From an uncultured virus (IMG/VR IMGVR_UViG_3300021254_000023) (lineage: Duplodnaviria; Heunggongvirae; Uroviricota; Caudoviricetes): a stretch of DNA of 20,000 nucleotides. This document shows positions 252 to 19,999 of the stretch, one piece after another. Every line of letters begins with the position of its first letter. Positions within the stretch are counted from its first letter, which is position 1. The notes beneath the pieces were generated by a model. It did no database searches, was not told the origin of the DNA, and was given only the letters and a program-made list of their open reading frames with translations. A program made the translations under genes and the position numbers. The stretch is taken from IMG/VR virus record IMGVR_UViG_3300021254_000023; one strand, given 5' to 3'.

Positions 252-1355
252 CTAGTATAAAAGTTCTCCTCTATACATTCCACCATTTTTCTGAACACCA
301 CTTATAATAAAGCGACGTTCCAATTCACCGTACCTGCTATACAGCCACCCATCCTTATCCTCTTTGAAGATTTCTCCAAAGTTTTCTGTTCGGGTACCTA
401 CATGCAGTTTAGTTCCTTTTACACGAATTGTATCCGTGTATAGGCCGAACTTAGTAGCTAAGTAATCATCAACCCAGTGATTTGGTTCTTCAGCCTTTGT
501 TTCTGTAGTTCCTCCATCTGGTTCACAGATTTCTGAATCTGAACTGACGGGTGCGGGATCTTCTTTAATCTTACCCTTCCCGATGGAGATTGAATTTATT
601 ACTTTTCCTATTACAGCATTGAGTTTACCTCCGGAGGGTTTCTTAACTGGATCTCTTTCTTCTTCCTCTGCATCGTTTTCGTGATACCAATCGTATTCTG
701 GATCAGTACGACGATCCCATTTACTGTAGAGCCATGAAGAAAGTTTATCTTTTCGTCCGTATCTCTTGATATAGGTTTTAGCCTCATTGAATTTCTTTTC
801 AAACTCATCTATATCCTCTCGTCCAGCTACGTAGTCCATGTATAGGACGCTTACATAGTTTGTACGAACCTGGATATTCAGACAATTGTCGTCTTCAATT
901 CGGCCATGGATATTAGCTTCATCAACAATAGATTTAAGCGTATCGATGGTACTAACCTCCAGAGAGTTAACAAGTTCCATAACGTCTGCTCGGACTTCTT
1001 TAACTTCAAGGTTCTCATCAACATATTGATTGATAGCTTTAGCAGAAATATTGCTGAACGTCTTGATATACTTAATACGACCGGGTCGGCCTACCAAGTT
1101 CTCATTAATATTCAGAGTATTCGTGGTCAAGATATAGAGTTTTCTGCTCTTATTCATGACACCATCAATCATTTTGAGGAGTGCTTGGCTTGCATTAGGG
1201 TCATCGTTCCGGAAGACCTTTTCAGCTTCATCTAAGAAGATGACACACTCAAACTCCAGCATCTGTACAAACTCAATCATACCAGGAGTATACTGGTTAA
1301 TGATGATGATAGGGATGTTAATCTCGTTGCAGAGAATTTTGGCACTAATGGTTTT
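252..1355 (-). CDS. AAA+ ATPase, exon 2 (spliced product 466 aa, join 1914..1618 + 1355..252)
   Basis: The frame of ORF 252..1280 extends upstream by 25 codons to 1355 (KTISAKILCNEINIPIIIINQYTPG-MIEF). It contains Walker B VIFLDEAEK, sensor-1 LTTN and the arginine-finger region LVGRPGRI. Confidence 0.9.
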   Translation of the reverse strand, partial: KTISAKILCNEINIPIIIINQYTPGMIEFVQMLEFECVIFLDEAEKVFRNDDPNASQALLKMIDGVMNKSRKLYILTTNTLNINENLVGRPGRIKYIKTFSNISAKAINQYVDENLEVKEVRADVMELVNSLEVSTIDTLKSIVDEANIHGRIEDDNCLNIQVRTNYVSVLYMDYVAGREDIDEFEKKFNEAKTYIKRYGRKDKLSSWLYSKWDRRTDPEYDWYHENDAEEEERDPVKKPSGGKLNAVIGKVINSISIGKGKIKEDPAPVSSDSEICEPDGGTTETKAEEPNHWVDDYLATKFGLYTDTIRVKGTKLHVGTRTENFGEIFKEDKDGWLYSRYGELERRFIISGVQKNGGMYRGELLY

Positions 1356-1617
1356 CAGTTATGTTACCCTATAGGCTTTTTATCCTATAGTTCAGATAGG
1401 TTCTTTGTTCCCTACTGCTCAGCATATATTTTCATCCTTTCTTTTTTGGATGGCGAACGCTCGTGGAGAGATTATATTCAGTTCTCTGTTTCACTCTCTA
1501 TGCGTTACACTACTTAGGATTCTTTAAGTCCTAAGTTAGCACGGTATTATCATCACAGACTTCACCGTTTTCGCTCGCTAATGATTTAATCGATTTCTCG
1601 ACTAAACGGCCGTTTTG
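1356..1617 (-). ncRNA. Group I self-splicing intron, 262 nt, no internal ORF
   Basis: 5' exon ends in U (GGU) and the intron ends in G (AACUG). Pairings seen: P1 GGUC/GGCC with U.G at the splice site; P2 UAGUCGA-GAAA-UCGAUUA (1587-1604); P3 GCGAGCG (1572-1578)/CGUUCGC (1453-1459); P4 CGGU/ACCG; P6a CUUAGGA/UCCUAAG; P7 GCAUA (1499-1503)/UAUGC (1422-1426); GAGAG/CUCUC; P8 CAUCC/GGAUG; 3' hairpin CUAUAGG/CCUAUAG. Removal restores GIKGTGKT in frame. Confidence 0.9.
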
Positions 1618-1914
1618 ACCAGTTCCTTTAATGCCGTTAAAGATTATACCCAGGTTCTGGTTACGTGAAATTACGTACTCACTATTCCAGGTCTTCTTTA
1701 TTTTCTCAATGAATTCGTCAATTCCCAGATCATATACTTTGAATGGGAATTCGAACTTTTCTGCAACCTTCTGGAGTCCAAGTCGTTGACTCATTGGGTT
1801 TGGATCTTGAACCAAGTTAAATATACCTGGTCCTGGGGAAGGGTAGACTTTAAAGTCTGCTGAGATTGGAAAGAATATTCCATGCTCAGGAATCCATTTG
1901 ATTTGATTACTCAT
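1618..1914 (-). CDS. AAA+ ATPase, exon 1 (99 codons, ends in Walker A ...GIIFNGIKGTG)
   Basis: ORF 1531..1914 reads NLGIIFNGIKGTG and then diverges into intron sequence. The KT that completes the P-loop begins exon 2. Confidence 0.9.
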
Positions 1915-2782
1915 ATTCGTATTTACCAGCTAATAAATTATACATATCAATGTAGTCAATTCCACAGGCATGGGCAGCATCAGCATCTTTACTACTGAGA
2001 CCCCACCTGCCGGAGTTGATTCCTATGTAGACCATATCTTCTTTGTTCCTCCAATCACGAACCGCCCCATAGACGATTCTTTCTTTTGGAGAACCTTCTA
2101 CTTGCTGTTTCAGGATAAACACAGAGTCTTTCCTGATTCTCAAATACGTACTTATACATACTTTGATATATTCCAAGGTTAGGTTTGCTACCCCAGGATT
2201 ACCAAATGCCGGTACTATATCATTGGCAGGAAAGATTACATATAGTCTAGTGGGATTGAAACTAGCTATCTTATCCCATACGTCGAACTTTGGTTTTAGA
2301 TCGAAGAGGGCTCTTGGCATGATGTTTGGTCTGCCATTACTCTCCCACGATTCATACAAACAGTCTAGGACGTCACAAATGACTACTTTCTTTCTGTTTC
2401 CAAGACCTCCGGTTGGTGTGACTTTAGGTTCTTCTTTCTTTGGTTGTCCAAAAGAACCACTTCCTGACCAACCACTGCCTGCTGACCATCCGCCGCTGTT
2501 TCCCCATGAGGGAGTTGTATCCTTCTTTTCCCAAGGAGCTCCCCCACTTCTAGAGGAGCCGAATGGGCTATTTCCGTTATCAAAAGGAGTGCTGTTACTC
2601 ATAGGCACCCAATGCCTCCTTTCTTCGAACTCGCTATCGAGTCTACTATTGAGTTCTTCTTGTTCATCAAGTAGTTTTTCTATTTTAATATCATCCTCGT
2701 CTATCATTTCCTCCAGAGGATCATCATCTTCTCTGGGGTAATCTGTGTAGTCGGGTGGAATATATTGTCTGTTATCGTTCAT
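1907..2782 (-). CDS. HAD-family (PNK 3'-phosphatase/GmhB-like) protein with degenerate catalytic motifs and an acidic, G/S/W-rich N-terminal region
   Basis: KVVICDVLDCL sits at the DxDGT position. MVYIGINSGRWGLSSKDADAAHACGIDYIDM resembles the C-terminal GD..G...S.SD...A...GI.Y.D motif of this family. Confidence 0.6.
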   Translation of the reverse strand: MNDNRQYIPPDYTDYPREDDDPLEEMIDEDDIKIEKLLDEQEELNSRLDSEFEERRHWVPMSNSTPFDNGNSPFGSSRSGGAPWEKKDTTPSWGNSGGWSAGSGWSGSGSFGQPKKEEPKVTPTGGLGNRKKVVICDVLDCLYESWESNGRPNIMPRALFDLKPKFDVWDKIASFNPTRLYVIFPANDIVPAFGNPGVANLTLEYIKVCISTYLRIRKDSVFILKQQVEGSPKERIVYGAVRDWRNKEDMVYIGINSGRWGLSSKDADAAHACGIDYIDMYNLLAGKYEYE

Positions 2783-7938: not shown

Positions 7939-7977
7939 AAAAAGAGGGGCAGCTTAATTGCTGTCGCCTTCTTTTTT
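7939..7977. terminator. Bidirectional terminator between convergent genes
   Basis: AAAAAGAGGGGCAGC-ttaatt-GCTGTCGCCTTCTTTTTT. Confidence 0.6.
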
Positions 7978-8871
7978 ATTTATCCACCAGATTATGTGGT
8001 CTTCGAGAGGTTTATCTGGTTCAATCCTATGTCTTGACACTGAGGATTTGATCATCTCCTTTGTTTTCTCAAAGAACTCATCAATCAGGTCTTCATGACC
8101 CTCCATAAACTCTTCATACTTTATGTTAGTATACTGAGTAGGATTGTATATAACTGTATATCCCATACAGCAAGATGTATACCTGAGTTCTAAGTCTCTA
8201 TTAACAGAAACCCAATAGTAGTCGTCGTCTCCATCGATAGCGCCCAAGAGGTATGCTAAGTCATTCGGCTCGACTTTACTATAGTTCCCCGGATAGTCTG
8301 GATTTCCCCATGCCCAGTGAATATACTTACCAACATCATCCTTAGCCTCTTTCAGGATAGCCAATTCATTATTGGCGTGCCAGAAAAGGCGGTGTTTCTT
8401 GTAATACGCATTTTTGAGTTTCCCTAGGATATCCACGTTGTAGGCTTCTCCTATAGGATTTTTTGGATTTCCATCCTCGTACTGATCACCAAAGATATCT
8501 AGGATGAAACGTCCAACAGCTTTCGACCTAGATTTTCCCGCTTTACAATGAATGACGAAGTCCTTTCCTAAGTTCCTTTCAATGAAGGTAACTATTAGAG
8601 CACCTTGTCCGCCAGTCATGGCTTTCATCCAATGTCCCTTGTATTGATAATCACCTGGCCCAGGAATATCATCAAATTCTATATTAAAGACGTTTGGGGA
8701 ATCGGAAAGAATGTGATCATTGTCATAGTCTTCCTTATCCTCTTCTAGTCTATACTTAATACAGTCTGGGGAACCTTCAATGGAGATAAAGGCTGTCTTA
8801 GTGGGATCTCTCTTGTATATTTCTTCTCGGAAATCTTTTTTAGAATATACACTAACTGTATTCTTTTTCAT
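7954..8871 (-). CDS. Protein-tyrosine/dual-specificity phosphatase-like (Cx5R) protein with an extra C-terminal domain
   Basis: P-loop VIHCKAGKSRS and an upstream acid loop IEFDDI. Confidence 0.85.
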   Translation of the reverse strand: MKKNTVSVYSKKDFREEIYKRDPTKTAFISIEGSPDCIKYRLEEDKEDYDNDHILSDSPNVFNIEFDDIPGPGDYQYKGHWMKAMTGGQGALIVTFIERNLGKDFVIHCKAGKSRSKAVGRFILDIFGDQYEDGNPKNPIGEAYNVDILGKLKNAYYKKHRLFWHANNELAILKEAKDDVGKYIHWAWGNPDYPGNYSKVEPNDLAYLLGAIDGDDDYYWVSVNRDLELRYTSCCMGYTVIYNPTQYTNIKYEEFMEGHEDLIDEFFEKTKEMIKSSVSRHRIEPDKPLEDHIIWWINKKEGDSN

Positions 8872-9230
8872 GGCAACTCTTCTATTCCCTGTCCTAACCA
8901 GTCTGCTACAATATGACGGTGGCAGAAGTCGCCTGGTTTTTCATAACATACTAGGGCAACTTCTTTTTTCCCGCCTGCCAATTCAGTCAAATTTCTTAAG
9001 ACTGATTCTTTATCTAAAACACTTAGTCGCTCTTTCAAAAACCTCTCGGTATATCTTTCTGGTGTTCCACCACGATTTTTATATTCATCGTAGATATCCC
9101 AAGAAGGGGCCAAGAGTTTGTATTCAGGATATTCCCAGCCAGGGACTGCTTTTCCACATATGGCAATTGGCATTATCCTGTCCGTGTCAATTGATTTGAC
9201 ATGAGCGAAATAGGTTGTCCAAATTTTCAT
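8868..9230 (-). CDS. DUF488-family protein
   Basis: MKIWTTYFA...LLAPSW...Y.ERF...ALVCYEKPGDFCHRHIVADWL. Start placed at ATG 9230, which overlaps the rtcB stop as ATGA. Confidence 0.85.
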   Translation of the reverse strand: MKIWTTYFAHVKSIDTDRIMPIAICGKAVPGWEYPEYKLLAPSWDIYDEYKNRGGTPERYTERFLKERLSVLDKESVLRNLTELAGGKKEVALVCYEKPGDFCHRHIVADWLGQGIEELP

Positions 9231-10618
9231 TTCTTTTTCTTTAAGGACCGCCAATCAGGTATTTCATCCTCCGCACCAGCTTTAATGTTTATGGCTGGTT
9301 TAATGAAGTACAGAATATCAGCGGTTGGTTTAATATTTTCAACAATTTCTTCCATAGGTTTATATGCCATGGGAGATTCGTCAATTGTACTCATATTAAC
9401 GGAGGTTGAGTAAATACCTTCCATAGATTTTTCGAAATCTTTCAATTTCAAGGTGTCCTTTGCTTTCGCTCTTGACATAACGCGACCAGCGCCATGAGAA
9501 CAAGAGTAGTTCCAATCGGGATTTCCTTTTCCCACACAAACTGCCATACCGTCTCTCATGTTGAATGGGAGAAGGAATGTCTCGTGAAGATTAGCTCGTA
9601 CGGCACCCTTTCTAATCATGGGAATACCATCAACTGTATCAAAGTCTATGTAGTTGTGAGTAGTAGTTACCACCCCAACCTTCTTAGCCTCTTTGACAAT
9701 TCCATTATAAATCTCTTCGGTCAAGCGGAGGATAGTTTGGTGATTGTAGGCTGCATAGGCCTGTGCTATTACCATGTCCGTTAAGTAGTATCGAAGATCT
9801 TCTCCCTCTAAGTAGCCAGGATTTCCTTGAGACTTATACTCGGCTATGGCCTTGTCTATTTCTTCACGAATCTTGGTTTTATCTTTGATTCTTTCACGAA
9901 CCTCTCTTGTGATTTGTCTTTCGACCTGTTTATCAAGTTTAACTTTGTTGGCTATATCATGCCACTTTTTCCATACCCTCTGGCCTAGGTTTCTAGAACC
10001 GGTATGAATGGTAACGGCCTGGATTGGCGTCATCATGTCTCCACCAACACCACCAAAGATAGCAGTAGATGGAGAAACACCTGTTCCATACTCGATAAAG
10101 TGATTCCCGCCGCCGATAGTTCCTATTGATTTATAGAATGTGGCTGGATCTATACCAACATCTTTCATCCATTCTTCCAGGTCATCTTCGTCTTGGAATT
10201 CTGGAACTATTGTTAGCCCACCTGTCCTCTGATAAGCCTTTCGTAAAGATTCTCTAAGAAATTTTAAAAAATCTTTAACTTCAAACATCCTATGTTCCTG
10301 AAGTCTTTTCCCTAATGGGAATGTTTTCTTCAGGCGGTGTTCAAAGAGAGGATATTTATCGGGCGGAATAGGTTCACTCATGAAAAGAGCACTAATAGAG
10401 CAACCTAGGTCGCAACCAACATGATCAGGATTAACCCAATCTCCGAGAGGAGCAGTAAATCCAATTACTATTCCTTCTCCTGAGTGAACATCAGGCATCA
10501 CTCTAACGCGTTTTCCATCAAAAGCTTTATTTCTACAGACCTCATAGATGGTTTCTAATGCCGTAGGCTCTACATAGTCTGTAAAAATCTTACAATTAAA
10601 ATTTTCAAGTTCAATCAT
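9227..10618 (-). CDS. rtcB: RtcB RNA 2',3'-cyclic/3'-phosphate-5'-OH ligase
   Basis: Motifs MPDVHSG, VGCDLGC, GTIGGGNHFIE, HTGSRNLG, HNY, RKGA, SCSHGAGR and DESPMAYK. Start placed at ATG 10618 (MIELENF), overlapping the upstream stop. Confidence 0.95.
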   Translation of the reverse strand: MIELENFNCKIFTDYVEPTALETIYEVCRNKAFDGKRVRVMPDVHSGEGIVIGFTAPLGDWVNPDHVGCDLGCSISALFMSEPIPPDKYPLFEHRLKKTFPLGKRLQEHRMFEVKDFLKFLRESLRKAYQRTGGLTIVPEFQDEDDLEEWMKDVGIDPATFYKSIGTIGGGNHFIEYGTGVSPSTAIFGGVGGDMMTPIQAVTIHTGSRNLGQRVWKKWHDIANKVKLDKQVERQITREVRERIKDKTKIREEIDKAIAEYKSQGNPGYLEGEDLRYYLTDMVIAQAYAAYNHQTILRLTEEIYNGIVKEAKKVGVVTTTHNYIDFDTVDGIPMIRKGAVRANLHETFLLPFNMRDGMAVCVGKGNPDWNYSCSHGAGRVMSRAKAKDTLKLKDFEKSMEGIYSTSVNMSTIDESPMAYKPMEEIVENIKPTADILYFIKPAINIKAGAEDEIPDWRSLKKKK

Positions 10619-10826
10619 AGTTATCAAGCGATTTTTCTTGTTTTCTATACTCTGACATTCTCTCTTCATATTTAGTACCTGCCAAAAATCCTTTTCGGAA
10701 AGCAAAATTCATGGCTTTTGTTACGATGGAGTTTATGTCTAATCCCTCTGCAATAAATTTCTTAACAGACTCATCAGTATCTTTGAAATTATTCTGTAAG
10801 TCTGGTTTTTCTGGTTTTCTAATCAT
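10611..10826 (-). CDS. Hypothetical protein, 71 aa
   Basis: Tiles between neighbouring genes; AFRKGFLAG is typical of small phage proteins. Confidence 0.7.
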   Translation of the reverse strand: MIRKPEKPDLQNNFKDTDESVKKFIAEGLDINSIVTKAMNFAFRKGFLAGTKYEERMSEYRKQEKSLDNYD

Positions 10827-10932
10827 TTTTCTTTGGTTTATAAAATGGACAATTCATAAATGCTAGTGGATTATGTTCAAAACACTCGCTTTGATTCCAT
10901 GCTTCACTACAATTTCCTGATTCAGTGCACAT
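10819..10932 (-). CDS. Small 4-Cys protein (37 aa), not in ORF track
   Basis: MCTESGNCSEAWNQSECFEHNPLAFMNCPFYKPKKND; overlaps both neighbours. Confidence 0.55.
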   Translation of the reverse strand: MCTESGNCSEAWNQSECFEHNPLAFMNCPFYKPKKND

Positions 10933-11323
10933 TGTTTAGGTATATATTACTTAAGATTAGCCAAGTTATTACAATCTGACACATATGTACTATTTGATCT
11001 GTCCAAAGACTAATCTTTTTTTGATTTGCTTTTAGATCATCTACTACGTAGTGCGCCGTTGCATTTAATACAAATATTACAGTTACCGTCTCATTAATTC
11101 CCTCCCATCCCCAAGTTATGACTAAGAATGGAAAAAGAATCATGATTGACCACGATATACTATGGATAGCTAGTGCCATTTTATAGTCATTCTTATAAAG
11201 ATCGTCGGGGGCGTTCTTTTCCCACCAACATCTCTGTTTCATACTACTCAGGCAGATTGGTTGTAACACAAAATCATCAATGATATGTGCTAGAATCATA
11301 AATAGTAGGAGTTTAGCCATCAC
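10922..11323 (-). CDS. DUF3307-family membrane protein
   Basis: LAHIIDDFVLQ...LAIHSI...HYVVDDLK...DQIVH pattern. Confidence 0.85.
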   Translation of the reverse strand: MMAKLLLFMILAHIIDDFVLQPICLSSMKQRCWWEKNAPDDLYKNDYKMALAIHSISWSIMILFPFLVITWGWEGINETVTVIFVLNATAHYVVDDLKANQKKISLWTDQIVHMCQIVITWLILSNIYLNNVH

Positions 11324-11514
11324 TTATTAGCAATAATGTAACATAATACTACAACTCCTGCTACCATAACTGCTGGCCAGAATAACCATGCTCCAACTGG
11401 GATTAGATTCCTTTTCCACCAAGAATCAGCTCCTTCAACTAAGACTCTTCCTACAATTAGAGCCCAAATTCCAAATACTAGGTAAAGTATTACTGCAATG
11501 ATAATAGTTAGCAT
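11320..11514 (-). CDS. Small membrane protein, 64 aa
   Basis: Two hydrophobic segments including WLFWP; overlaps both neighbours. Confidence 0.75.
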   Translation of the reverse strand: MLTIIIAVILYLVFGIWALIVGRVLVEGADSWWKRNLIPVGAWLFWPAVMVAGVVVLCYIIANK

Positions 11515-12581
11515 ACTCTTGTTATTCTATTTAAAAATTTAACTGGTTCTCGGTTTTCAAAGTAGAATAGGAGGTCGTAATCGTCAGGCTGAGGAGGAAT
11601 ACCATGTAGGTCTTCATAGATCTGAGCCATATAATTCTTCGTCACTCCTTTCATTTCATAGGTTCCGTCAGAGAACTCCTTGAGATATGCTCTGACACTC
11701 TGATCTGTAACTGTCTTGTATTCGACTGACTTCAGAAAGAATACCTGAGGATTCACGTAGGTCTGTTGTTCGGCAGCTACCCAATCACGAACCTCTAAGA
11801 GGCCTTTCCAATCAATCTCTATTGGATCTGGTCCTAGGGCGAAGATAATTTCGTCGTTATCACGGGTAATAATCTCTCCCTTATCTCCAATAAATTCTTT
11901 GATTGGTCCAGCAGCCTTGGTTATCATCCACTTCTCAATAGTCATCTGTCTGGAGGGATTTGTATTTCCAAAGACAACCACTCTAAGGTGTTTACTCTTC
12001 TTGATGTAATTCTTTACTGACTCCGGACACTTATCCCCAATGACAGCATCAACCCACTTGTCGTAGAGTTCTTTAGGTTTCTTACCTTCCTCTGGTCCGA
12101 CCGGAACTCCTGTGAAAAAGTCTGGAGAGATAGAAGATAGGGCTTGGTAATTAGCTCGAGACATATCTATACTCAGATAGTATTGCCCTACCTTACTTTC
12201 ATTATAGATATTATTCTTTGGGAGTTTTTCGGGGATATAATCAAACTCCTTGTTCGTAGCGGAGTACTCTTGGAGATCTTTCTTATTGAAAACATCATAC
12301 CAAGGACTCTGCAAGATACCTTGTAATAGAGCTTCTCGACCTTGGAAGTAGGAATCTATAAATGCCTTCGGATTTCCACCAAAGTCTTTCTCTACTCCTT
12401 GGAGAATCTCATCCCAGAGGGTCTTAGTTTTAAACATACCCTCATAAAGGTTCACCAGGTATTCAAAAGGACCATCTTCCATAACTGTAATTGGAAGTTT
12501 CATGTCCTCAATAAATCTGTACTTTAATTCTCTATTTTCTATCATATCATAGGTAAGGGGAACAAAAGAAAAAGGAAGCAT
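11508..12581 (-). CDS. Hypothetical protein, 357 aa, with polymerase-palm-like motifs
   Basis: YLSIDMSRANYQAL and IITRDNDEIIFAL. The CDS is secure; the function is speculative. Confidence 0.75.
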   Translation of the reverse strand: MLPFSFVPLTYDMIENRELKYRFIEDMKLPITVMEDGPFEYLVNLYEGMFKTKTLWDEILQGVEKDFGGNPKAFIDSYFQGREALLQGILQSPWYDVFNKKDLQEYSATNKEFDYIPEKLPKNNIYNESKVGQYYLSIDMSRANYQALSSISPDFFTGVPVGPEEGKKPKELYDKWVDAVIGDKCPESVKNYIKKSKHLRVVVFGNTNPSRQMTIEKWMITKAAGPIKEFIGDKGEIITRDNDEIIFALGPDPIEIDWKGLLEVRDWVAAEQQTYVNPQVFFLKSVEYKTVTDQSVRAYLKEFSDGTYEMKGVTKNYMAQIYEDLHGIPPQPDDYDLLFYFENREPVKFLNRITRVC

Positions 12582-12582
12582 T

Positions 12583-13182
12583 TTATACTTCCTCTATCTT
12601 TTTTATTCTAACGTCACTCCAAATATCCATAGGTGCTCCTAATGGTGTAAGAATATCCACTCGATTAGTGAACCTTGGATTCATAGTATCATGAACTATG
12701 TATCGACCGTTTATTCGTCTATTTCCCTTGACGACGGTTAATTCAATGACATTACCGTAGTTGTACCTATCAAGTAAGTCTCTACTGACGGCAACCCAAC
12801 GAATCTTCCCTTGTCTAAGTTTTTCTAAGTCAATTTTACTATTATCCGCAGTTATTAGTGGATCTTCGTCACATTGTGACACCACTGGATTATATTGAGT
12901 AACAGTTACTCTTCCTTTGTGTTTCTTTCTCTTGTGGGCAGCCAGCTTAATTGTTTTCTTTATAGTCGGCTCTTCCCATGAACACTCTTCTTCTTCTATG
13001 GTTTCAGGGTTTGGTCCATTATATTTTCCAATGGATGCAATAGCTCCCTCTAACCACTCTTTTTCTCGCTGTTCCCTACTTTTAGGTTTATTAGGGTTCA
13101 GGTTATACCCAAATAGACAAAACATGAACATGACTATTAGGGTAAATTGTAATCTATCAACCCTCTTTTCATCTTTTGTCAT
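12583..13182 (-). CDS. Membrane-anchored 3D-domain (MltA/RlpA-like double-psi barrel) protein, probably cell-wall lytic or binding
   Basis: N-terminal TM; VTVTQYNP..QCDEDPLITAD, WVAVSRDLL, YIVHDTMN.RF..RVDIL. Start placed at ATG 13182. Confidence 0.85.
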   Translation of the reverse strand: MTKDEKRVDRLQFTLIVMFMFCLFGYNLNPNKPKSREQREKEWLEGAIASIGKYNGPNPETIEEEECSWEEPTIKKTIKLAAHKRKKHKGRVTVTQYNPVVSQCDEDPLITADNSKIDLEKLRQGKIRWVAVSRDLLDRYNYGNVIELTVVKGNRRINGRYIVHDTMNPRFTNRVDILTPLGAPMDIWSDVRIKKIEEV

Positions 13183-13507
13183 ACTTCTTGGCAATTATTT
13201 TAAGTTCATTATTCTTGCCATTTAAAGTACTCCCTAAGAGTGCGTCGGCAAGTAAAATTAGCGTATTAACTCCGGCCGTATTTTTTACTTCCGGAATATT
13301 CTCTTTTTCATATACCGTTCCATCGGTATCTTTATTGTTAAACTGAAAAGAGACATTTTTATCCATCTTAATGGTTCTCTTTTTCAGCCGCTGTACGTAA
13401 TATTGACAAGTTTCATTTACGAAACCTACCATTTCAATGATGACTTTACGTCTTTGTATGTCGAACTTTGCCCAGTCCTCATACCTTTTTCTGAAATAAT
13501 TTTCCAT
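13169..13507 (-). CDS. Hypothetical protein, 112 aa
   Basis: First gene after the promoter motif at 13533-13543. Confidence 0.75.
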   Translation of the reverse strand: MENYFRKRYEDWAKFDIQRRKVIIEMVGFVNETCQYYVQRLKKRTIKMDKNVSFQFNNKDTDGTVYEKENIPEVKNTAGVNTLILLADALLGSTLNGKNNELKIIAKKYDKR

Positions 13508-13532
13508 AATATTCTTCGTTTAATTATTCTAC

Positions 13533-13543
13533 TATATATAAGG
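13533..13543 (-). promoter_or_regulatory. Promoter-like motif CCTTATATATA(G)
   Basis: 25 nt upstream of ATG 13507; heads the gene run 13507 to 7954. Confidence 0.55.
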
Positions 13544-13566
13544 CGCTGATATACTTTTCAGACGGT

Positions 13567-13619
13567 AAAAAAAATACAGGACTCGACACCTCCTTTCAAA
13601 AGATGTTGTCGTCTCTGTA
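13567..13619 (-). terminator. Intrinsic terminator
   Basis: UACAGAGACGACAACAUCUUUUGAAAGGAGGUGUCGAGUCCUGUA followed by U8. The G.U pairs favour minus orientation. Confidence 0.7.
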
Positions 13620-13697
13620 TACACAAACACAAACTACTTAAAACTCACTAAAAACCGGAACAATTATCATCGTTAATCGTTATTACATTATTAGTTT
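13567..13697 (-). ncRNA. Candidate small non-coding RNA
   Basis: Bounded by the motif at 13701-13711 and a hairpin plus U8 terminator at 13567-13619. The longest ATG ORF inside is 10 codons. Confidence 0.45.
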
Positions 13698-13700
13698 TCA

Positions 13701-13711
13701 CATTTATAAGG
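13701..13711 (-). promoter_or_regulatory. Promoter-like motif CCTTATAAATG
   Basis: Consensus copy directly after the hairpin GGGGAGAT-ttaag-GTCTTCCC that spans the DHH gene stop. Confidence 0.6.
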
Positions 13712-13729
13712 GTTTGAAGGGGGAAGACC

Positions 13730-14659
13730 TTAAATCTCCCCTTTCATTATTAGCTTCTCAAAATCAGCTAAGTTCAACTGAGTACCAGCAGCGCCAGCAT
13801 GACCTCCAGCTTTATCTGCTCCGAAGCGACTTTGCAAGTATTCGCCACAGTTAAATTCTGGTAGCCTTCCATTTTCCATATACATTCCAAGCGTAAAATA
13901 CACACTGCCAGTAGTTTCATCGGTTTTTCGATTAGCAGTCATGTAGATGTCATAATCATCTTTAACTGATTCAAAAATCCTAGAACCCATGCTGTTGGTT
14001 AGGATGCAAATTCCTTTGTACTTCCCTGCAACAGTGACGGGAAATGAATACGTTTTCACAGCGGCCTTGAATTGCTGCTTCTCATAATCATTAATCATTC
14101 GGCCCGCCTCTAATATGTGATCCATAGAGAAGGCGTCAGTCATGAAGTTATCGAAGTTTTCATAGATCTTATCGAAGTTCATTCCGTACTGTGCTTTTAG
14201 GGCGAGCTGGAATGGAACGATCTCTATGTCCCAGTTAAAACGGGAATGGTCCCAAACATCATAGGAAGAGAGGTACTGGATAGTCATGGGCGGTCTTGCT
14301 CCTCGGGTAAAAAATTCCCAAGTAAGTTCGCATGCTCCTTGACCGATTCGTCTCAGACCATCAATATCATTATAACCATTGCTGTCAGCTAGGTTCAAGG
14401 CAGTTACATGATGATCAATCCAGATCACATCTACGTTTCCTTTCAACCACTTCATAATGTTGGGAGGGAATGATATATCAACTAGGATGGCAGCATCGAA
14501 CTCCATCTCGTCAAACTTAGGCATAGGATCACCGTGTGTCCATCCTAACATCTCAATTTCATCCCAATAACCTTCTTTAGCTAGGGCCCACTTAGCAACC
14601 CCAGCACTAAATAACCCATCGTAATCAACTCGATGGTAAACTATAATTACTTTTTTCAT
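13730..14659 (-). CDS. DHH/DHHA1-family phosphoesterase
   Basis: YHRVDYDG, LVDISF, WIDHH, GACELTW, YDVW and GGHAGAAG motifs. Confidence 0.92.
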   Translation of the reverse strand: MKKVIIVYHRVDYDGLFSAGVAKWALAKEGYWDEIEMLGWTHGDPMPKFDEMEFDAAILVDISFPPNIMKWLKGNVDVIWIDHHVTALNLADSNGYNDIDGLRRIGQGACELTWEFFTRGARPPMTIQYLSSYDVWDHSRFNWDIEIVPFQLALKAQYGMNFDKIYENFDNFMTDAFSMDHILEAGRMINDYEKQQFKAAVKTYSFPVTVAGKYKGICILTNSMGSRIFESVKDDYDIYMTANRKTDETTGSVYFTLGMYMENGRLPEFNCGEYLQSRFGADKAGGHAGAAGTQLNLADFEKLIMKGEI

Positions 14660-15450
14660 ATTATATCAAGAAATGTAGATTCTCCATCATATATTCTCAG
14701 TAAGGTAAGTTCCTCGTTGAATGCAGTTCTTTCTATATTTTCTTGAGTTACTACCATACCGCTCCAGGCAGAGATATCTTTAAACACTTTATCAACATCA
14801 CCAACCGTAGTGAATTCGCATTCCTCTAGGTTAGAAATAGTCTCTCCATAACGTTCACCAAAAAAGGACTTCTGACTATCCGTCAAGTCACGAGCCACAA
14901 ATAGTGCGATGGCTGTGTGAAAGTAATTCCGGACATGCTCGGGGTCTGAGAAGAGAGGATAAGCTTTCATCTCCTTAAACTCCATCTTCTCCTTTAGCTT
15001 GTCTTTTGAATAGAGGATTCTCTCATTGGCTTTCTGTCGATCGATAGTTGAGATAGCTGAACAAAGACTACGTTCAGCCTCATTGGCTTCCCACTTCCAG
15101 GTGGCAGCCTCTAAGACACAGTCCGATAGTATATCTATGTACCTGTCGATAAGTCCATTGGCAGCCTCCAAGGAATCAAACCAATAGTCATCAGCTTTAG
15201 TCTCAACACCAACCCAGAAGTCTTTCCATGGAGCGGGGATTTCTAGTTTTTCAGCAGTTTCTCTAACTTCTGCATATTTTCTTCGGCAATGCACCTTGTA
15301 CTTATCCAGCTCTAGTGTTACGTCTATGAGCTTATCCTGGAAAGCACTAATTTCTCGCCTTGCCGCATTTGCTTTTTCTAGTTCTTTTTTCTTAGAACTT
15401 AATAGCCGATCTAGTTCATCGGTACTAATTTCTTTGTTGTTAAATTTCAT
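14656..15450 (-). CDS. Hypothetical protein with N-terminal coiled coil, 264 aa
   Basis: ORF with an ATGA overlap to the DHH gene and a promoter motif upstream. Confidence 0.8.
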   Translation of the reverse strand: MKFNNKEISTDELDRLLSSKKKELEKANAARREISAFQDKLIDVTLELDKYKVHCRRKYAEVRETAEKLEIPAPWKDFWVGVETKADDYWFDSLEAANGLIDRYIDILSDCVLEAATWKWEANEAERSLCSAISTIDRQKANERILYSKDKLKEKMEFKEMKAYPLFSDPEHVRNYFHTAIALFVARDLTDSQKSFFGERYGETISNLEECEFTTVGDVDKVFKDISAWSGMVVTQENIERTAFNEELTLLRIYDGESTFLDII

Positions 15451-15475
15451 TTGCTTTACCTGTTATTTTGTTTCT

Positions 15476-15486
15476 CAAAGGTAAGG
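15476..15486 (-). promoter_or_regulatory. Promoter-like motif CCTTACCTTTG (matches Bacteroidota -7 element TAnnTTTG)
   Basis: 25 nt upstream of ATG 15450; overlaps the 3' arm of hairpin AGGGGAAT...ATTCCCCT. Confidence 0.6.
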
Positions 15487-15543
15487 GGAATCAGACTTTA
15501 TTGGCCTAAATTCCCCTAGTGAATTCCTTCGTAAGTATGGCAG

Positions 15544-16611
15544 CTAGGAATTCTTTTGTCTAAGTTTGGTATAACTCTGTTTCCCTTTCGCCACCGACGA
15601 GGGATCAATGAGTCGCCAATACCTATTATTTTTATTCTCAAAAATGTTATCTGCGTATTCTGGTGGACGTTTGTCACTTTTAGAAGTTTCACGTACGGAT
15701 TCTCCGCTCTGTTTTATTCCAAACGCATTGTCCCAAGAAACGTCAAATATGTCGCCTGCCTTACGACCTGTTAATGCTAGTGGAGAAATACCACCACCAT
15801 TTTTTACTAGTCGGATGATAATATACATATTACCTTCAATATCAATGAAGTCCGACTCTTTTACTTTTTCCGATCCTTTAAAATCCCCTGTTATCATAGT
15901 CCACGGTACGTCTTCACCTTTTTTGTATCCTTGGTAAGATCCTATTCCCTGAATATCATCCTTTATGGATATTCTGAGGGATACGAGGAAGAGTTCCGCA
16001 TCCAAGAAGTCACCACCCGGGGTTTGAATTATATTCTTATCGGAGGTATTCTTGAAACCACTAAGTTTCAACACCATGTACCTAATTGATCCTCTCCATT
16101 CCTCCAAGGCGGAAGTTGGGTAAGTACTCAGGTCTAGGTTATCAAAGACCTTTTTCTCAGGATCAAATTGTCTCCAGGCAATGATATCAGCTGGGAAGAT
16201 GATGAGTTTTGGCTTATATTCAATTCCAAAGTACTCACACATCTTTTCTGAGAGAAACTTCTTATGACCTATCTCACCGGTCTGATGAGACATTATCACG
16301 GAATTGAACTTCTCTGTTTGAACAACCTTCTCCAGTTTATAAACCGTCTTAAGACCATTCTCGTAGAGGTGTCCTGGAATAAGTTCTCCACTAGAATCCT
16401 CTACAGCAGGGAGGGGTAGTCTCGGCTTTTCAAGACGTTGATCAAGGAAAGATAGGTAGTGATCCGTTGGGATAACATCTATCCTATCTCCCTTTAATCT
16501 AACGTAATGTGTTGCGCGAGACCTGTAGTGAAAGATAGGATACCCTTTCTCATCCTTCCCCTCGGTTACTCTAATTGTATCAGTATCGTTGTAACAATAC
16601 ATTCCTGCCAT
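15544..16611 (-). CDS. Hypothetical protein, 355 aa
   Basis: Long ORF coupled to telA by a TAATG overlap. Confidence 0.8.
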   Translation of the reverse strand: MAGMYCYNDTDTIRVTEGKDEKGYPIFHYRSRATHYVRLKGDRIDVIPTDHYLSFLDQRLEKPRLPLPAVEDSSGELIPGHLYENGLKTVYKLEKVVQTEKFNSVIMSHQTGEIGHKKFLSEKMCEYFGIEYKPKLIIFPADIIAWRQFDPEKKVFDNLDLSTYPTSALEEWRGSIRYMVLKLSGFKNTSDKNIIQTPGGDFLDAELFLVSLRISIKDDIQGIGSYQGYKKGEDVPWTMITGDFKGSEKVKESDFIDIEGNMYIIIRLVKNGGGISPLALTGRKAGDIFDVSWDNAFGIKQSGESVRETSKSDKRPPEYADNIFENKNNRYWRLIDPSSVAKGKQSYTKLRQKNS

Positions 16612-17807
16612 TATTTAAGCTCATCTGCCGTGATAGCTGCTTTACCAGTACCGTACATCTCTTCAAGGTCTTTAGCAATACCACGAAGTTCCTCACTAGT
16701 TTCTTTATTAATTCTAGAGATCTCTGCACGAGCTTCAGCTCTCTTTTGAGCTGCTTCGCGTATATTCTGAGCAGACGTCTTGAGGGCCTCCACAACGCTT
16801 GTGTTAGCCTGACGGTAGGTATCGAGATCGATGATATCACGCATGGCATTCTCCTCTACCTTGATAGTGATGTTCTTCATGTTCTCGGCATTCTGAACAA
16901 TCATCTTGTTGTGCATATCTTTGATAAGTTTCTGAGACTCTGCAATCTCTTCACTTCTCTGATCAATGATAGCGATGGCGATAGAGGTTTCCCACTCTGG
17001 AAGCACGTGATTCCTGATATTCTCTGCACTGGAGGCCAAGATCTCAGTATTATCTTTCATCTTCTGAATCTGCGGGAGAAGGATGTGGCCATTATATTGA
17101 GCTGCCATGAACAGCTGGTGACCACGCTCATCAATCTTCTCAAGGAATCTCTTCTTTGCGATAAGCTCCTGATCTGACCACTTACCTGGAGTTTCTCCAT
17201 TCTCCTTAAGCATTCTGTTGTACTCATCTTCAGTATCCTTATAGAGCTGAGCGAGGGCAACATAGTCCATACCAAGCTGCTCTATATAGGAGACAGTCTT
17301 TCTCTGAATCTCATCCAAGGTATTGTAATCCTGGAAGAGGTCGGCCTGTTGTGTTGCCAGAGAGTCAGAGACACGGCCAATAGTCTTCTTAGCGGATTCG
17401 TGCTTCTGAATGAGTTTATCTACACGAGCTGCTGCCGGGACTCCGATAAAGGGGAGTTTGGCTACGAATTTTTTCCAACCGGTCAGTTTGTCTGGATCTG
17501 CGAGCTGAGACTCATTAATGACGTCTACAATCTCCTGGATATAACCACCGACAGGACCGGCCTTATCTATCTTGTTCATTTCCAGCAACTTTGCTGAGCA
17601 CTCACTCTTCGTGGACTCAAGCTTGATACCGAAAGATGACAAGGTCTTCTCGTCTTTTACGTGGCGAGTGATCTCACGACAACGAGCAACTGCCTCTGGA
17701 GACAAGCTACTGACGTCAACGCGACCATCTTCACCAACAACACGACTAAGTTTCACCAATGCGTCGTCCGCATTTTCTCTTACTGTTTTTACAATTTCGT
17801 TTGCCAT
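16611..17807 (-). CDS. telA: Toxic anion resistance protein TelA/KlaA family
   Basis: Helical ~400-aa protein with TLSSFG, KKFVAKLPFIG, LPQIQKMKDNTEIL, VLPEWETSIAIAI, MIVQNAENMK and IIDLDTYRQAN matching the TelA pattern. Confidence 0.88.
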   Translation of the reverse strand: MANEIVKTVRENADDALVKLSRVVGEDGRVDVSSLSPEAVARCREITRHVKDEKTLSSFGIKLESTKSECSAKLLEMNKIDKAGPVGGYIQEIVDVINESQLADPDKLTGWKKFVAKLPFIGVPAAARVDKLIQKHESAKKTIGRVSDSLATQQADLFQDYNTLDEIQRKTVSYIEQLGMDYVALAQLYKDTEDEYNRMLKENGETPGKWSDQELIAKKRFLEKIDERGHQLFMAAQYNGHILLPQIQKMKDNTEILASSAENIRNHVLPEWETSIAIAIIDQRSEEIAESQKLIKDMHNKMIVQNAENMKNITIKVEENAMRDIIDLDTYRQANTSVVEALKTSAQNIREAAQKRAEARAEISRINKETSEELRGIAKDLEEMYGTGKAAITADELK

Positions 17808-17860: not shown

Positions 17861-18544
17861 CTAATCCAAGGGTTTTGTCATGTCATACTTATAAAGTTCG
17901 GTCGGAGAGACGGGATGTTCCTCAAAGAATTCTTTACATCTCTTCTTTCTAAACTCTAGTTCTCCTTCTGGAGTTTTAAATGTACTTTGAAGCCATCCGT
18001 AGGAAGAATACTCTTTCTTTTTCTTCTTCTCAGACTTCCAACGCTTCTTGATTTTCTCTAAGAAGGCTTTTTCATTCTTTAATTCTTCACGAAGTTCGAT
18101 CATCATAGGCCAATCTTCCATGAAGCTAATGATATCGTAGGTCTGTCTTTCTTCAGGCTTTAAATTCTTAATCCATTCCCACTCTTCCTTAGAAGGTCTT
18201 CGAAGAAGTCGACCTTGATCATCTTTAATATAAAAGTAATCAGAGTCAATCACATAGTAATTCTTAAGGAGATAGTCTATAACATCGTCCTTAGCTTCAT
18301 CAATATCAAGCATGGACCAACCGTCGGGGATCCATTCATAGGATTCACCCCACTCTTTGTCTATCGGACTTGTATTATCATAGACTGACAGTTCACCTCC
18401 CATACCAGAGCATTTCTTAGAATCAATAGACTCAAGGTCCTGTAAGATGTCATCAACACTTCTTCCATAGTTTCTAAAAACGAAAACTTCAGAACTACTA
18501 TTAGTTATGACATCTGTTCTACTTTTTATTCTTCTTTTTGCCAC
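17861..18544 (-). CDS. 'TNSSSE'-motif family hypothetical protein, paralogue 3
   Basis: N-terminus RIKSRTDVITNSSSEVFVF; also SGMGGELSVY and PDGWSMLDID. Confidence 0.8.
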   Translation of the reverse strand: MAKRRIKSRTDVITNSSSEVFVFRNYGRSVDDILQDLESIDSKKCSGMGGELSVYDNTSPIDKEWGESYEWIPDGWSMLDIDEAKDDVIDYLLKNYYVIDSDYFYIKDDQGRLLRRPSKEEWEWIKNLKPEERQTYDIISFMEDWPMMIELREELKNEKAFLEKIKKRWKSEKKKKKEYSSYGWLQSTFKTPEGELEFRKKRCKEFFEEHPVSPTELYKYDMTKPLD

Positions 18545-18822
18545 GTTGTATCTTTTACTTTGTTCTTACCAAACGCTCTTTTTAAGTGTTTTTCAGTATC
18601 CAGTAATCCACAAGGACCATGGAGATACTCTATATCTACAGCTGTTCCATCGAAGGTGTCACTAAACTCCGCTGTAAAGATATTTGGCTTTTTAGGATTG
18701 TCTCTTGTCCCAAATGTTCCTAAGCCTTCCAGATAATCATACCAAGTTTCCATGACTGCTTCCCAGTCACCACTTTTCTTTATCTGATAGGATTCTATAA
18801 CTTCATCATATCGGTCAATCAT
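18526..18822 (-). CDS. Hypothetical protein, 98 aa
   Basis: ATGA overlap with the upstream gene; tiles the operon. Confidence 0.7.
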   Translation of the reverse strand: MIDRYDEVIESYQIKKSGDWEAVMETWYDYLEGLGTFGTRDNPKKPNIFTAEFSDTFDGTAVDIEYLHGPCGLLDTEKHLKRAFGKNKVKDTTWQKEE

Positions 18823-19307
18823 GTAGTGTAATGCTCGATAAAAGTTCTTTTATTTTTCTTCATCCACGTTTCCATCGGCTTAATACTGCTGTTCCAGTGA
18901 TCAAGCTCTCCGTAAGCATTCCCGATAAGCTTATTCCAGGAGGGATCAGCAAGAACTTTGTCCCAAAACTCTTTATCTTTTTTCTCAAAGTATTCTTTAA
19001 CTTCTGTTACTGTATGACCAAAGTCAATAAGTACTTGGAGAAGTGCGTTACTGGTTCGTAAGTTCATAGAAGGAGGGACAGCGGCTGGGAGATTCATCCC
19101 TGAAGGAGGTCTCATTATACGCTTAATATCTTCTTTGCTATGATATACTTTTGTATTTCTAGTAAGAGAAGATTCAATATACTCCTTATTTTCTAGGTCA
19201 GATTCTCTAAGCCACTCCATAAAATCATCCCAGTCCTGAACTTTCATAATGAATACTTCAGAACTACTATTGGTTATTACATCTGTTTTGCTTCGTATTC
19301 TAAACAT
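18819..19307 (-). CDS. 'TNSSSE'-motif family hypothetical protein, paralogue 2
   Basis: N-terminus MFRIRSKTDVITNSSSEVFIM. Confidence 0.8.
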   Translation of the reverse strand: MFRIRSKTDVITNSSSEVFIMKVQDWDDFMEWLRESDLENKEYIESSLTRNTKVYHSKEDIKRIMRPPSGMNLPAAVPPSMNLRTSNALLQVLIDFGHTVTEVKEYFEKKDKEFWDKVLADPSWNKLIGNAYGELDHWNSSIKPMETWMKKNKRTFIEHYTT

Positions 19308-19999
19308 TTTTGTACACTTGAATAATATCGTTCAACTTTTTCATACTCTGGCCAAATTTTCTGAATCTCTTTATCAGATTTTACATTAGCCATTCTATTC
19401 TGAATCTCTTCCCACTTCTTTTTCCAATAATCTCCTAACCAATCCCAGAAAAGATTTTTTGGAGAATGTTTAGGCCAATCTAGGCACTGAATATAGTCTG
19501 GATTAGTCATTATCCATCTTCTCTTCTCCTGGAAAGCAGAGTCCAAGTCGATGGCTAGGTAACCGTCGGGAAGACATTCAAAGGGTTTATGCTCATCAAC
19601 AATATCACTTGCCTCAGATTCATAGTCTTCCCAATCCCAGTAGTTACAATCGTTCTTTGTGGTCTGATTGTTATAAACTTCTATAATTCCTCCCATCCCA
19701 GAAACACGATCATCTTCCTCTTTTATACTCCTCAGAAATAGTTCCATGTTCTCTGGGCTTTTATCACTTTTCATGATAAAAACTTCAGACGAGGAATTAG
19801 TTACTACGTCCGTCTTGTTCTTTACTTTCACTGTTGGGTTTGTATAGTAAATTATTTTATTCTCTTTGATTATTTGTCGTTTTAGAAACCAAGAGGATAC
19901 TTTCCTAACTGCTAGGTAACTAAGATCTTCTATACTAACAATATGGTAAGGAGTTATCTCACCATGTTCATTATCATAGTTAATCTGTTTTACTCCAAG
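19277..19999 (-). CDS. 'TNSSSE'-motif family protein, paralogue 1; frame open to window edge
   Basis: VKVKNKTDVVTNSSSEVFIM, SGMGGIIEVY and PDGYLAIDLD. 56 stop-free codons precede the GTG at 19831, so the true start may lie outside the window. Confidence 0.75.
   Translation of the reverse strand, partial: LGVKQINYDNEHGEITPYHIVSIEDLSYLAVRKVSSWFLKRQIIKENKIIYYTNPTVKVKNKTDVVTNSSSEVFIMKSDKSPENMELFLRSIKEEDDRVSGMGGIIEVYNNQTTKNDCNYWDWEDYESEASDIVDEHKPFECLPDGYLAIDLDSAFQEKRRWIMTNPDYIQCLDWPKHSPKNLFWDWLGDYWKKKWEEIQNRMANVKSDKEIQKIWPEYEKVERYYSSVQKCLEYEAKQM

Follow-up and report, generated by a model that had tools for sequence, protein, structure and literature searches.

A group I intron without ORF, spliced out of the Walker A motif of a phage AAA ATPase

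Group I introns of class IA are characterised by an extra helix, P7.1, that follows P7 and precedes the 3' strand of P3, and those of the IA2 type, represented by the td intron of phage T4, carry two hairpins, P7.1 and P7.2, in their structure. The introns of phage JCL1032 are reportedly self-splicing. Passages of PMC3984707 name the P7.1 feature and describe the P7 pairing as diagnostic for subclasses, and passages of PMC2504315 link the Bacillus cereus prophage intron term-IVS1 to JCL1032 TMP and to TMP-IVS3, the latter being classed as IA1, and describe TMP-IVS3 introns with similar peripheries and dissimilar cores. Among P-loop ATPase genes, recA is a described host, whose group I introns often lack an endonuclease and, according to excerpts of the literature, are spliced in vivo; the difference from the locus treated here is that RecA has its own fold and not that of the AAA proteins. 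Many short group I introns are reported in a passage on the Jug jumbo gut phages, with metatranscriptomes supporting splicing for 37 of 76 (PMC12880540), and a passage on Delta and Zeta crAss-like phages mentions introns in the crAss ATPase ATP_43b (PMC7886860). The likeness to our locus is that these, too, are large gut phages with many short introns, and the passages concerned give no Walker A positions. Our literature search yielded no paper in which Walker A is named a hotspot of group I introns or the ATPase family described below a host, and supplementary lists may include such sites.

We analysed a stretch of 20,000 nt from an uncultured virus of the Caudoviricetes (IMG/VR record IMGVR_UViG_3300021254_000023), termed the window in the following, in which an AAA ATPase gene is interrupted at the G|K boundary of its P-loop by what is almost certainly a functional, endonuclease-free, IA-like group I intron, which would be spliced by group I chemistry and probably arrived as a selfish element. 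The gene is composed as follows:

1618..1914, minus strand: AAA ATPase exon 1 with 99 codons, ending in GIKGTG, last base U; matched to the intron-less allele
1356..1617, minus strand: 262-nt group I intron without ORF, last base G (1356); bridged by an exact joint in RNA contigs; 153 bits with a leave-out model
1531..1533, minus strand: in-frame stop codon inside the intron, in the 5' strand of P6a; ends the unspliced frame
252..1355, minus strand: exon 2; 367 codons plus stop, beginning with KT and comprising Walker B, sensor 1, the arginine finger region and the C-terminal part; PF00004, alignment A1

The joined protein with GIKGTGKT that an earlier note on this DNA had claimed was reproduced by removing 1356-1617, which gives a single frame of 466 amino acids (GIKGTG|KT) and leaves a U before the insert and a G as its last base. 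Among seven shifted cuts tried, GKT is restored only by 1356-1617 and 1357-1618, and of these two only the former has both the preceding U and the terminal G. If the insert is retained, the frame stops at 1531-1533 after 127 amino acids and lacks the P-loop lysine, which upholds the claim that the ATPase needs splicing. The longest stop-free stretch on the sense strand inside the insert is 28 codons, so that it holds no ORF, and no endonuclease family was found in the 16 window ORF entries scanned (of 57).

By its profile matches, the encoded protein is an AAA ATPase (PF00004, phrog_2376): exon 2 matches Pfam AAA PF00004 with E 1e-7, the intron-less protein P0001 reaches 47 bits against PF00004 (cut-off 21) and E 5e-45 against phrog_2376, and Walker A and Walker B are kept in the alignment of continuous homologues (A1). 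A comparison of the ATPase profile with solved structures gave no match at E 1e-5. The nearest related virus record (L001) encodes the same protein without insert, all 98 aligned residues of the exon 1 protein being identical to the intron-less allele, and a second record (L002) contains a diverged insert at the same base as the window intron, with an exon 2 that is 47% identical. Alignment to intron-less homologues had been proposed as a check, and homologues that are naturally two proteins as a refutation; L001 is continuous, and every full-length homologue forms one chain whose P-loop is unbroken. A pair of naturally separate proteins, or their joining by frameshift or bypass, could invoke the in-frame ATG at 1280 in exon 2, from which a 342-aa protein would be made, yet this product would be devoid of the P-loop, the homologous chains have a continuous Walker A motif and the insert is removed at an RNA joint (see below), so that we attach a negligible probability to this explanation.

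Of 131 loci retrieved with the family alignment, a redundant set whose metagenome part consists of the best 80 of 192 and thereby favours intact genes, 127 contain the motif, which is intact in 124 and interrupted in three (L162, L176, L177). Since the related virus records measure 218 and 305 kb, both incomplete, and the window stretch is present in animal gut runs, the source is a jumbo gut phage, and names attached to a few homologues suggest a Bacteroidales host. Promoter-like sites in the window are fewer than expected by chance (11 vs 16.4 in shuffles). The window also contains, on the minus strand, an accessory cluster at 7954-17807 with phosphatase-like, DUF488, RtcB RNA ligase, DHH-like and TelA genes and, at 17861-19831, a series of short ORFs that are paralogous, three of them beginning with the common motif TDV(I/V)TNSSSEVF.

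Removal of the insert was observed in RNA. When contigs of four runs were aligned to window positions 900-2000, a single, unambiguous joint was found, from 1355 to 1618, at which 262 bases are skipped. This joint, the junction ACTGGT|AAAACC at which the earlier note had proposed to look for RNA evidence, occurs exactly in contigs of all three RNA runs (X3, X4 and X5, from two studies) and in none of the single DNA run (X2), and the exon parts of the spliced contigs show zero mismatches to the window. As assembled contigs, the RNA data say nothing on strand, level or efficiency of splicing; the runs examined contained no RNA contig across the unspliced 3' junction, which proves nothing. Intron-less alleles being the majority (124 intact against 3 interrupted among the 127 motif-bearing loci) and RNA libraries being able to contain DNA, the joined contigs could be imagined to stem from a co-occurring intron-less allele beside a dead or non-splicing insert. 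The joint is, however, absent from DNA run X2 at a depth of about 190 and present in X4, RNA of the same sample, a comparison that covers the sample of X4. Moreover, the spliced contigs carry the exon letters of the window, whereas around the site L001, the closest allele without intron, uses another codon at 20 of 26 positions that encode the same residue, so that the contigs do not derive from the L001 allele. With the intron helices intact as well, this alternative is largely refuted and must be regarded as very improbable.

A different question is whether the RNA acts as an autonomous ribozyme or whether its splicing, although real, depends on a host or phage protein, a maturase or a chaperone. 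Relatives of the window intron carry LAGLIDADG genes, and proteins of this family can serve as maturases. Furthermore, a passage of PMC11878797 reports that four of eight spliced genes were spliced only in infected cells. Against such a dependence stand the complete and compact core and the lack of an ORF in the intron; we consider it rather unlikely, though a serious candidate, and it is compatible with group I identity.

The insert has a folding energy of -70.1 kcal/mol, far below that of dinucleotide shuffles (z = -5.3; mean of 100 shuffles, -46.3 +/- 4.5 kcal/mol). It contains the following elements:

1604..1625, minus strand: P1, in which the internal guide sequence (1611-1604) pairs with the exon 1 end; 8 pairs, a single bulge, U-G at the cut; from the fold
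1588..1603, minus strand: P2 hairpin with GAAA loop; from the fold, kept in L162 with a changed stem
1453..1578, minus strand: P3, 1578-1572 with 1459-1453; encloses P4-P5-P6-P6a (1568-1509) and P7.1 plus P7.1a (1498-1466)
1421..1505, minus strand: P7 pseudoknot helix between 1505-1499 and 1426-1421; contains the guanosine site, an invariant G-C pair with a bulged base
1433..1452, minus strand: P8; fold and covariation
1369..1417, minus strand: P9 and P9.1; fold and covariation

In the L162 intron, the same P1 helix is closed by a different loop. From an alignment of 24 cores, RNAalifold found P3, P4, P5, P6, P6a, P7.1, P8, P9 and P9.1 unaided; P7 was added by hand and is paired in 24 of 24 (100% of cells). 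Over 54 pairs, 96.6% of 1277 cells are paired and 41 pairs show two-sided changes, none of 500 shuffles reached the observed pairing and slid controls were 33-42% paired, figures that are somewhat inflated by the choice of the 24 rows, window included, for shared motifs. Two-sided changes affect 7 of 7 pairs in P3, 2 of 6 in P7 and 5 of 5 in P7.1. The G-C pair after the P7 bulge is present in all 24 cores, and the bulged base covaries with the first pair (15 A-U with C, 9 G-C with A). No P10 pairing with the 3' exon was obvious by eye; P10 is common in group I introns and not universal. The element thus shows a U/G P1 cut, a terminal G, a P3-P9 core with the P3/P7 pseudoknot and guanosine site, and RNA removal with exon ligation, the hallmarks of group I introns. 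The U, the terminal G and the P1-P9 fold named in the earlier note were all found, and its 262-nt ORF-less group I intron at 1356-1617 in the Walker A motif proved right to the base by spliced RNA contigs, the intron-less allele and covariation.

The covariance-model search suggested along with these claims turned out differently, as the Rfam group I model (RF00028) misses the window intron: scans of the whole window (E up to 1) and of 1300-1680 (E up to 10) gave no group I match, only chance matches. Applied to 12 related loci, RF00028 matched L010 only, and it is weak even on true members (35.7 bits for the T4 nrdB region, 44.5 bits for phage CPQ4, td not listed at E 0.01). We built a core-only covariance model, R1, from 18 relatives with all ATPase-site introns left out. 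R1 scores the window intron with 153 bits as the only match in 20 kb, and it also detects the RF00028-positive intron of CPQ4 (52.5 bits), the JCL1032 tape-measure intron (68 bits, E about 2e-17) and, as best match in 14 kb of T4, the 5'/P4-P6 part of the td intron (16.9 bits, E 0.003), matches that bridge the window intron to described group I introns. In a relaxed DNA search, nine phage records span at least 80% of the window intron, and a pattern derived from the intron 3' end matched at least 111 stretches; matches in Streptococcus phages (24 nt at E 0.9) were taken as chance. Among the sampled 3' ends, 110 of 117 have a variant P7, one has the classic form and six are unassigned.

The single extended P7.1 helix of the window intron is a class IA feature, and the two hairpins of IA2 are not found. 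In T4 td (IA2), these two hairpins were recognised by eye between P7 and P3'; td further differs from the window intron by its classic P7 and by I-TevI, the P4-P6 region being clearly similar. With the JCL1032 tape-measure intron (of the JCL1032/TMP-IVS3 type, linked to IA1) the window intron shares the architecture, namely P3-P8, the single P7.1 extension and the P9/P9.1 end, whereas the host gene is another and the diagnostic P7:P7' sequence is not matched, the window reading ACGCAUA/UAUGCU and both JCL1032 and T4 td the classic ACGACUA/UAGUCU. Because its P7 letters are unlike those of JCL1032 and td and P7 is diagnostic (PMC3984707), we file the intron no more closely than as IA-like with a variant P7. 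The contrast of periphery and core in TMP-IVS3 may be the same split as that between variant and classic P7. Both P7 forms were seen in members that Firmicutes phages carry in a family of small genes of Gly/Asn-rich, spore-protein-like type (L048, L051, L067, L011, L010), L010 having the classic and L011 the variant P7. In phiCD211 (L007), a second element (1792-2057), labelled Intron_gpI by the depositors and without Rfam match, lies about 30 bases past a lineage member.

The host site had been called unusual in the earlier note, which is overstated, since crAss-like phage cr6_1 has an intron at the same boundary and relatives occupy other Walker A motifs. In cr6_1 (NC_055894.1, gp44/gp43/gp42), the ATPase is split at GTKGTG|KT by an intron of 1084 nt whose P1 loop contains a LAGLIDADG gene (LAGLIDADG_3 match above cut-off), labelled 'intron-encoded endonuclease' in the record, between the ATPase halves. 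The two systems agree in ATPase family (phrog_2376 is the best match of both), in the G|K boundary and in intron lineage (147 bits with R1, 68% identity); they differ in the length and LAGLIDADG gene of the cr6_1 intron, in the host proteins, which are 26% identical over 160 amino acids, and in that the cr6_1 intron is known from database annotation. Of 67 cr6_1-type loci examined, eight have an intron of 1065-1084 nt, 46 are intact and 13 were not scored. Identity of the window's ATPase family with ATP_43b was considered and rejected, gene order placing ATP_43b near DnaB (Sak4-like in cr6_1); judging from gene order and figure legends, the family probably corresponds to 'AAA_ATP (delta)'.

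The lineage is often found in P-loops. The RecD gene of Bacillus phage PJN02 is split at GGGGMG|KS (L004, 520-1750) by a LAGLIDADG-bearing member, the endonuclease being annotated as two pieces. The 111 sampled 3' exons, among the matches listed, represent about 82 sites, of which eight start within a Walker A motif, numbers based on junctions chosen by eye, a rough grouping into sites and a scan of 80 peptides with near-duplicates omitted. For L038, L040/L047, L042, L062, L068 and L090 both exons were seen, and L076 and L112 were assigned by the start of exon 2 alone. The Walker A hosts include RecD, terminases, Sak4-like and other P-loop proteins, and further hosts are tape-measure, capsid, polymerase, nrdD and ligase genes. 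In terminase-like proteins, many members (L015, L018, L034, L056, L057, L061, L107, L111, L123) are located just upstream of a Walker B-like acidic motif. Some genes (L068, L054/L055, L016) contain at least two lineage members a few hundred bases apart, with short exons (39 codons in a Sak4-like gene). More members were found by profile search in the related jumbo phage records (L255-L259; five matches in G003, one in G002), two of them (L256, L258) in a COOH.NH2 ligase-like gene, as judged by likeness to L049. A second intron of the lineage was not found within the 20-kb window.

Following established group I chemistry, P1 would form between the guide sequence and the exon 1 end, P7 would bind a free guanosine that cuts after the U, and exon 1 would then attack past the terminal G, so that the exons are joined and the full P-loop is translated, while unspliced RNA would yield the 127-aa stub. 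The intron probably reached the conserved motif as a selfish element, and probably by homing of a cr6_1-like, endonuclease-bearing form with the gene in the P1 loop; the endonuclease gene would have been lost afterwards, and the intron may persist because only an exact loss keeps the motif. Homing followed by loss is favoured by the endonuclease-bearing form at the same site, by the patchy presence, by the clade of the window and L162 introns and by a peak of synonymous differences beside the site. In the tree, the window and L162 introns are joined (96/93), despite host proteins that share only about half of their residues, and cr6_1 falls with them in 34% of bootstrap trees; with cr6_1 not grouped, the tree does not support one origin for all introns at the site. 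Synonymous differences amount to 20 of 26 codons beside the site as against 72 of 237, the codon window having been chosen after the data were seen. Of 51 flanking bases, 41 match the intron-bearing L162 and 36 the close intron-less allele, and three intact alleles also match 41, a weak signal of possible co-conversion.

A regulatory role, an idea that the introduction of PMC11878797 mentions as an unproven hypothesis, would agree with the unspliced frame, which stops in the intron and lacks the P-loop lysine. It is nevertheless improbable, as the intron is patchy (3 of 127 and 8 of 54 scored loci) and missing from the close relative L001, an Rfam scan found no aptamer or other Rfam element attached, and the spread over about 82 different sites in 111 sampled rows, among the matches listed, is expected of a selfish element. 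For everything observed, a regulatory role is superfluous. The window element is a real, spliced, ORF-less group I intron of a known kind, and it exemplifies, with boundaries exact to the base and support from transcripts, an intron lineage that is widespread in phages and escapes the standard Rfam model, so that fragmentary annotation is probable for many ATPase, terminase and tail genes of phages. Group I introns use Walker A motifs much like inteins do (8 of 82 sampled sites, among the matches listed), and a compact active intron of 262 nt for which intron-less, ORF-less and endonuclease-bearing alleles exist at one site is handy for studies of homing and loss.

One further contig bears on the mode of spread. 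In run X3, a single contig of 635 bases extends across the intron as far as the terminal G and from there goes on at window position 8525 downwards, the loose contig end having been matched to window 8496-8525:

8525..8526, minus strand: GGU|C, mimicking a splice site within the phosphatase-like gene (7954-8871); one RNA contig; tentative

The mimic lies just past the HCxxGxSR motif of this gene and reads GGU|CGAAA, its counterpart at the native 5' splice site being GGU|CAAAA. On the minus strand, 49 of 20,000 positions have GGU|C, and GGU|CNAAA is found four times on both strands together, the native site counted. Neither the window nor L260, the only phosphatase locus of a relative that was found, is interrupted at the mimic, and L260 contains no lineage intron. 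We tentatively propose, as a possibility of less than even weight, that the terminal G of the excised intron might attack mimics in other phage mRNAs, which is the first step of reverse splicing, or that the sample contained a fresh ectopic DNA copy; for one contig in one run, a library chimera is a possible source as well. According to a passage of PMC3984707 (2014), spread by reverse splicing was without direct experimental evidence, and the junction, if real, would make it testable. It would also give the Rfam-invisible, variant-P7 lineage an RNA route to dozens of unrelated sites, many of them P-loops whose glycine codons supply GGU.

A piece of 30-32 nt from P9.1 (window 1362-1393) also occurs in other contigs of runs X2, X4 and X5, the depth being 375 for the shared piece and about 190, that of the phage, for one contig sharing it, which suggests a second intron of the lineage elsewhere in the phage genome.
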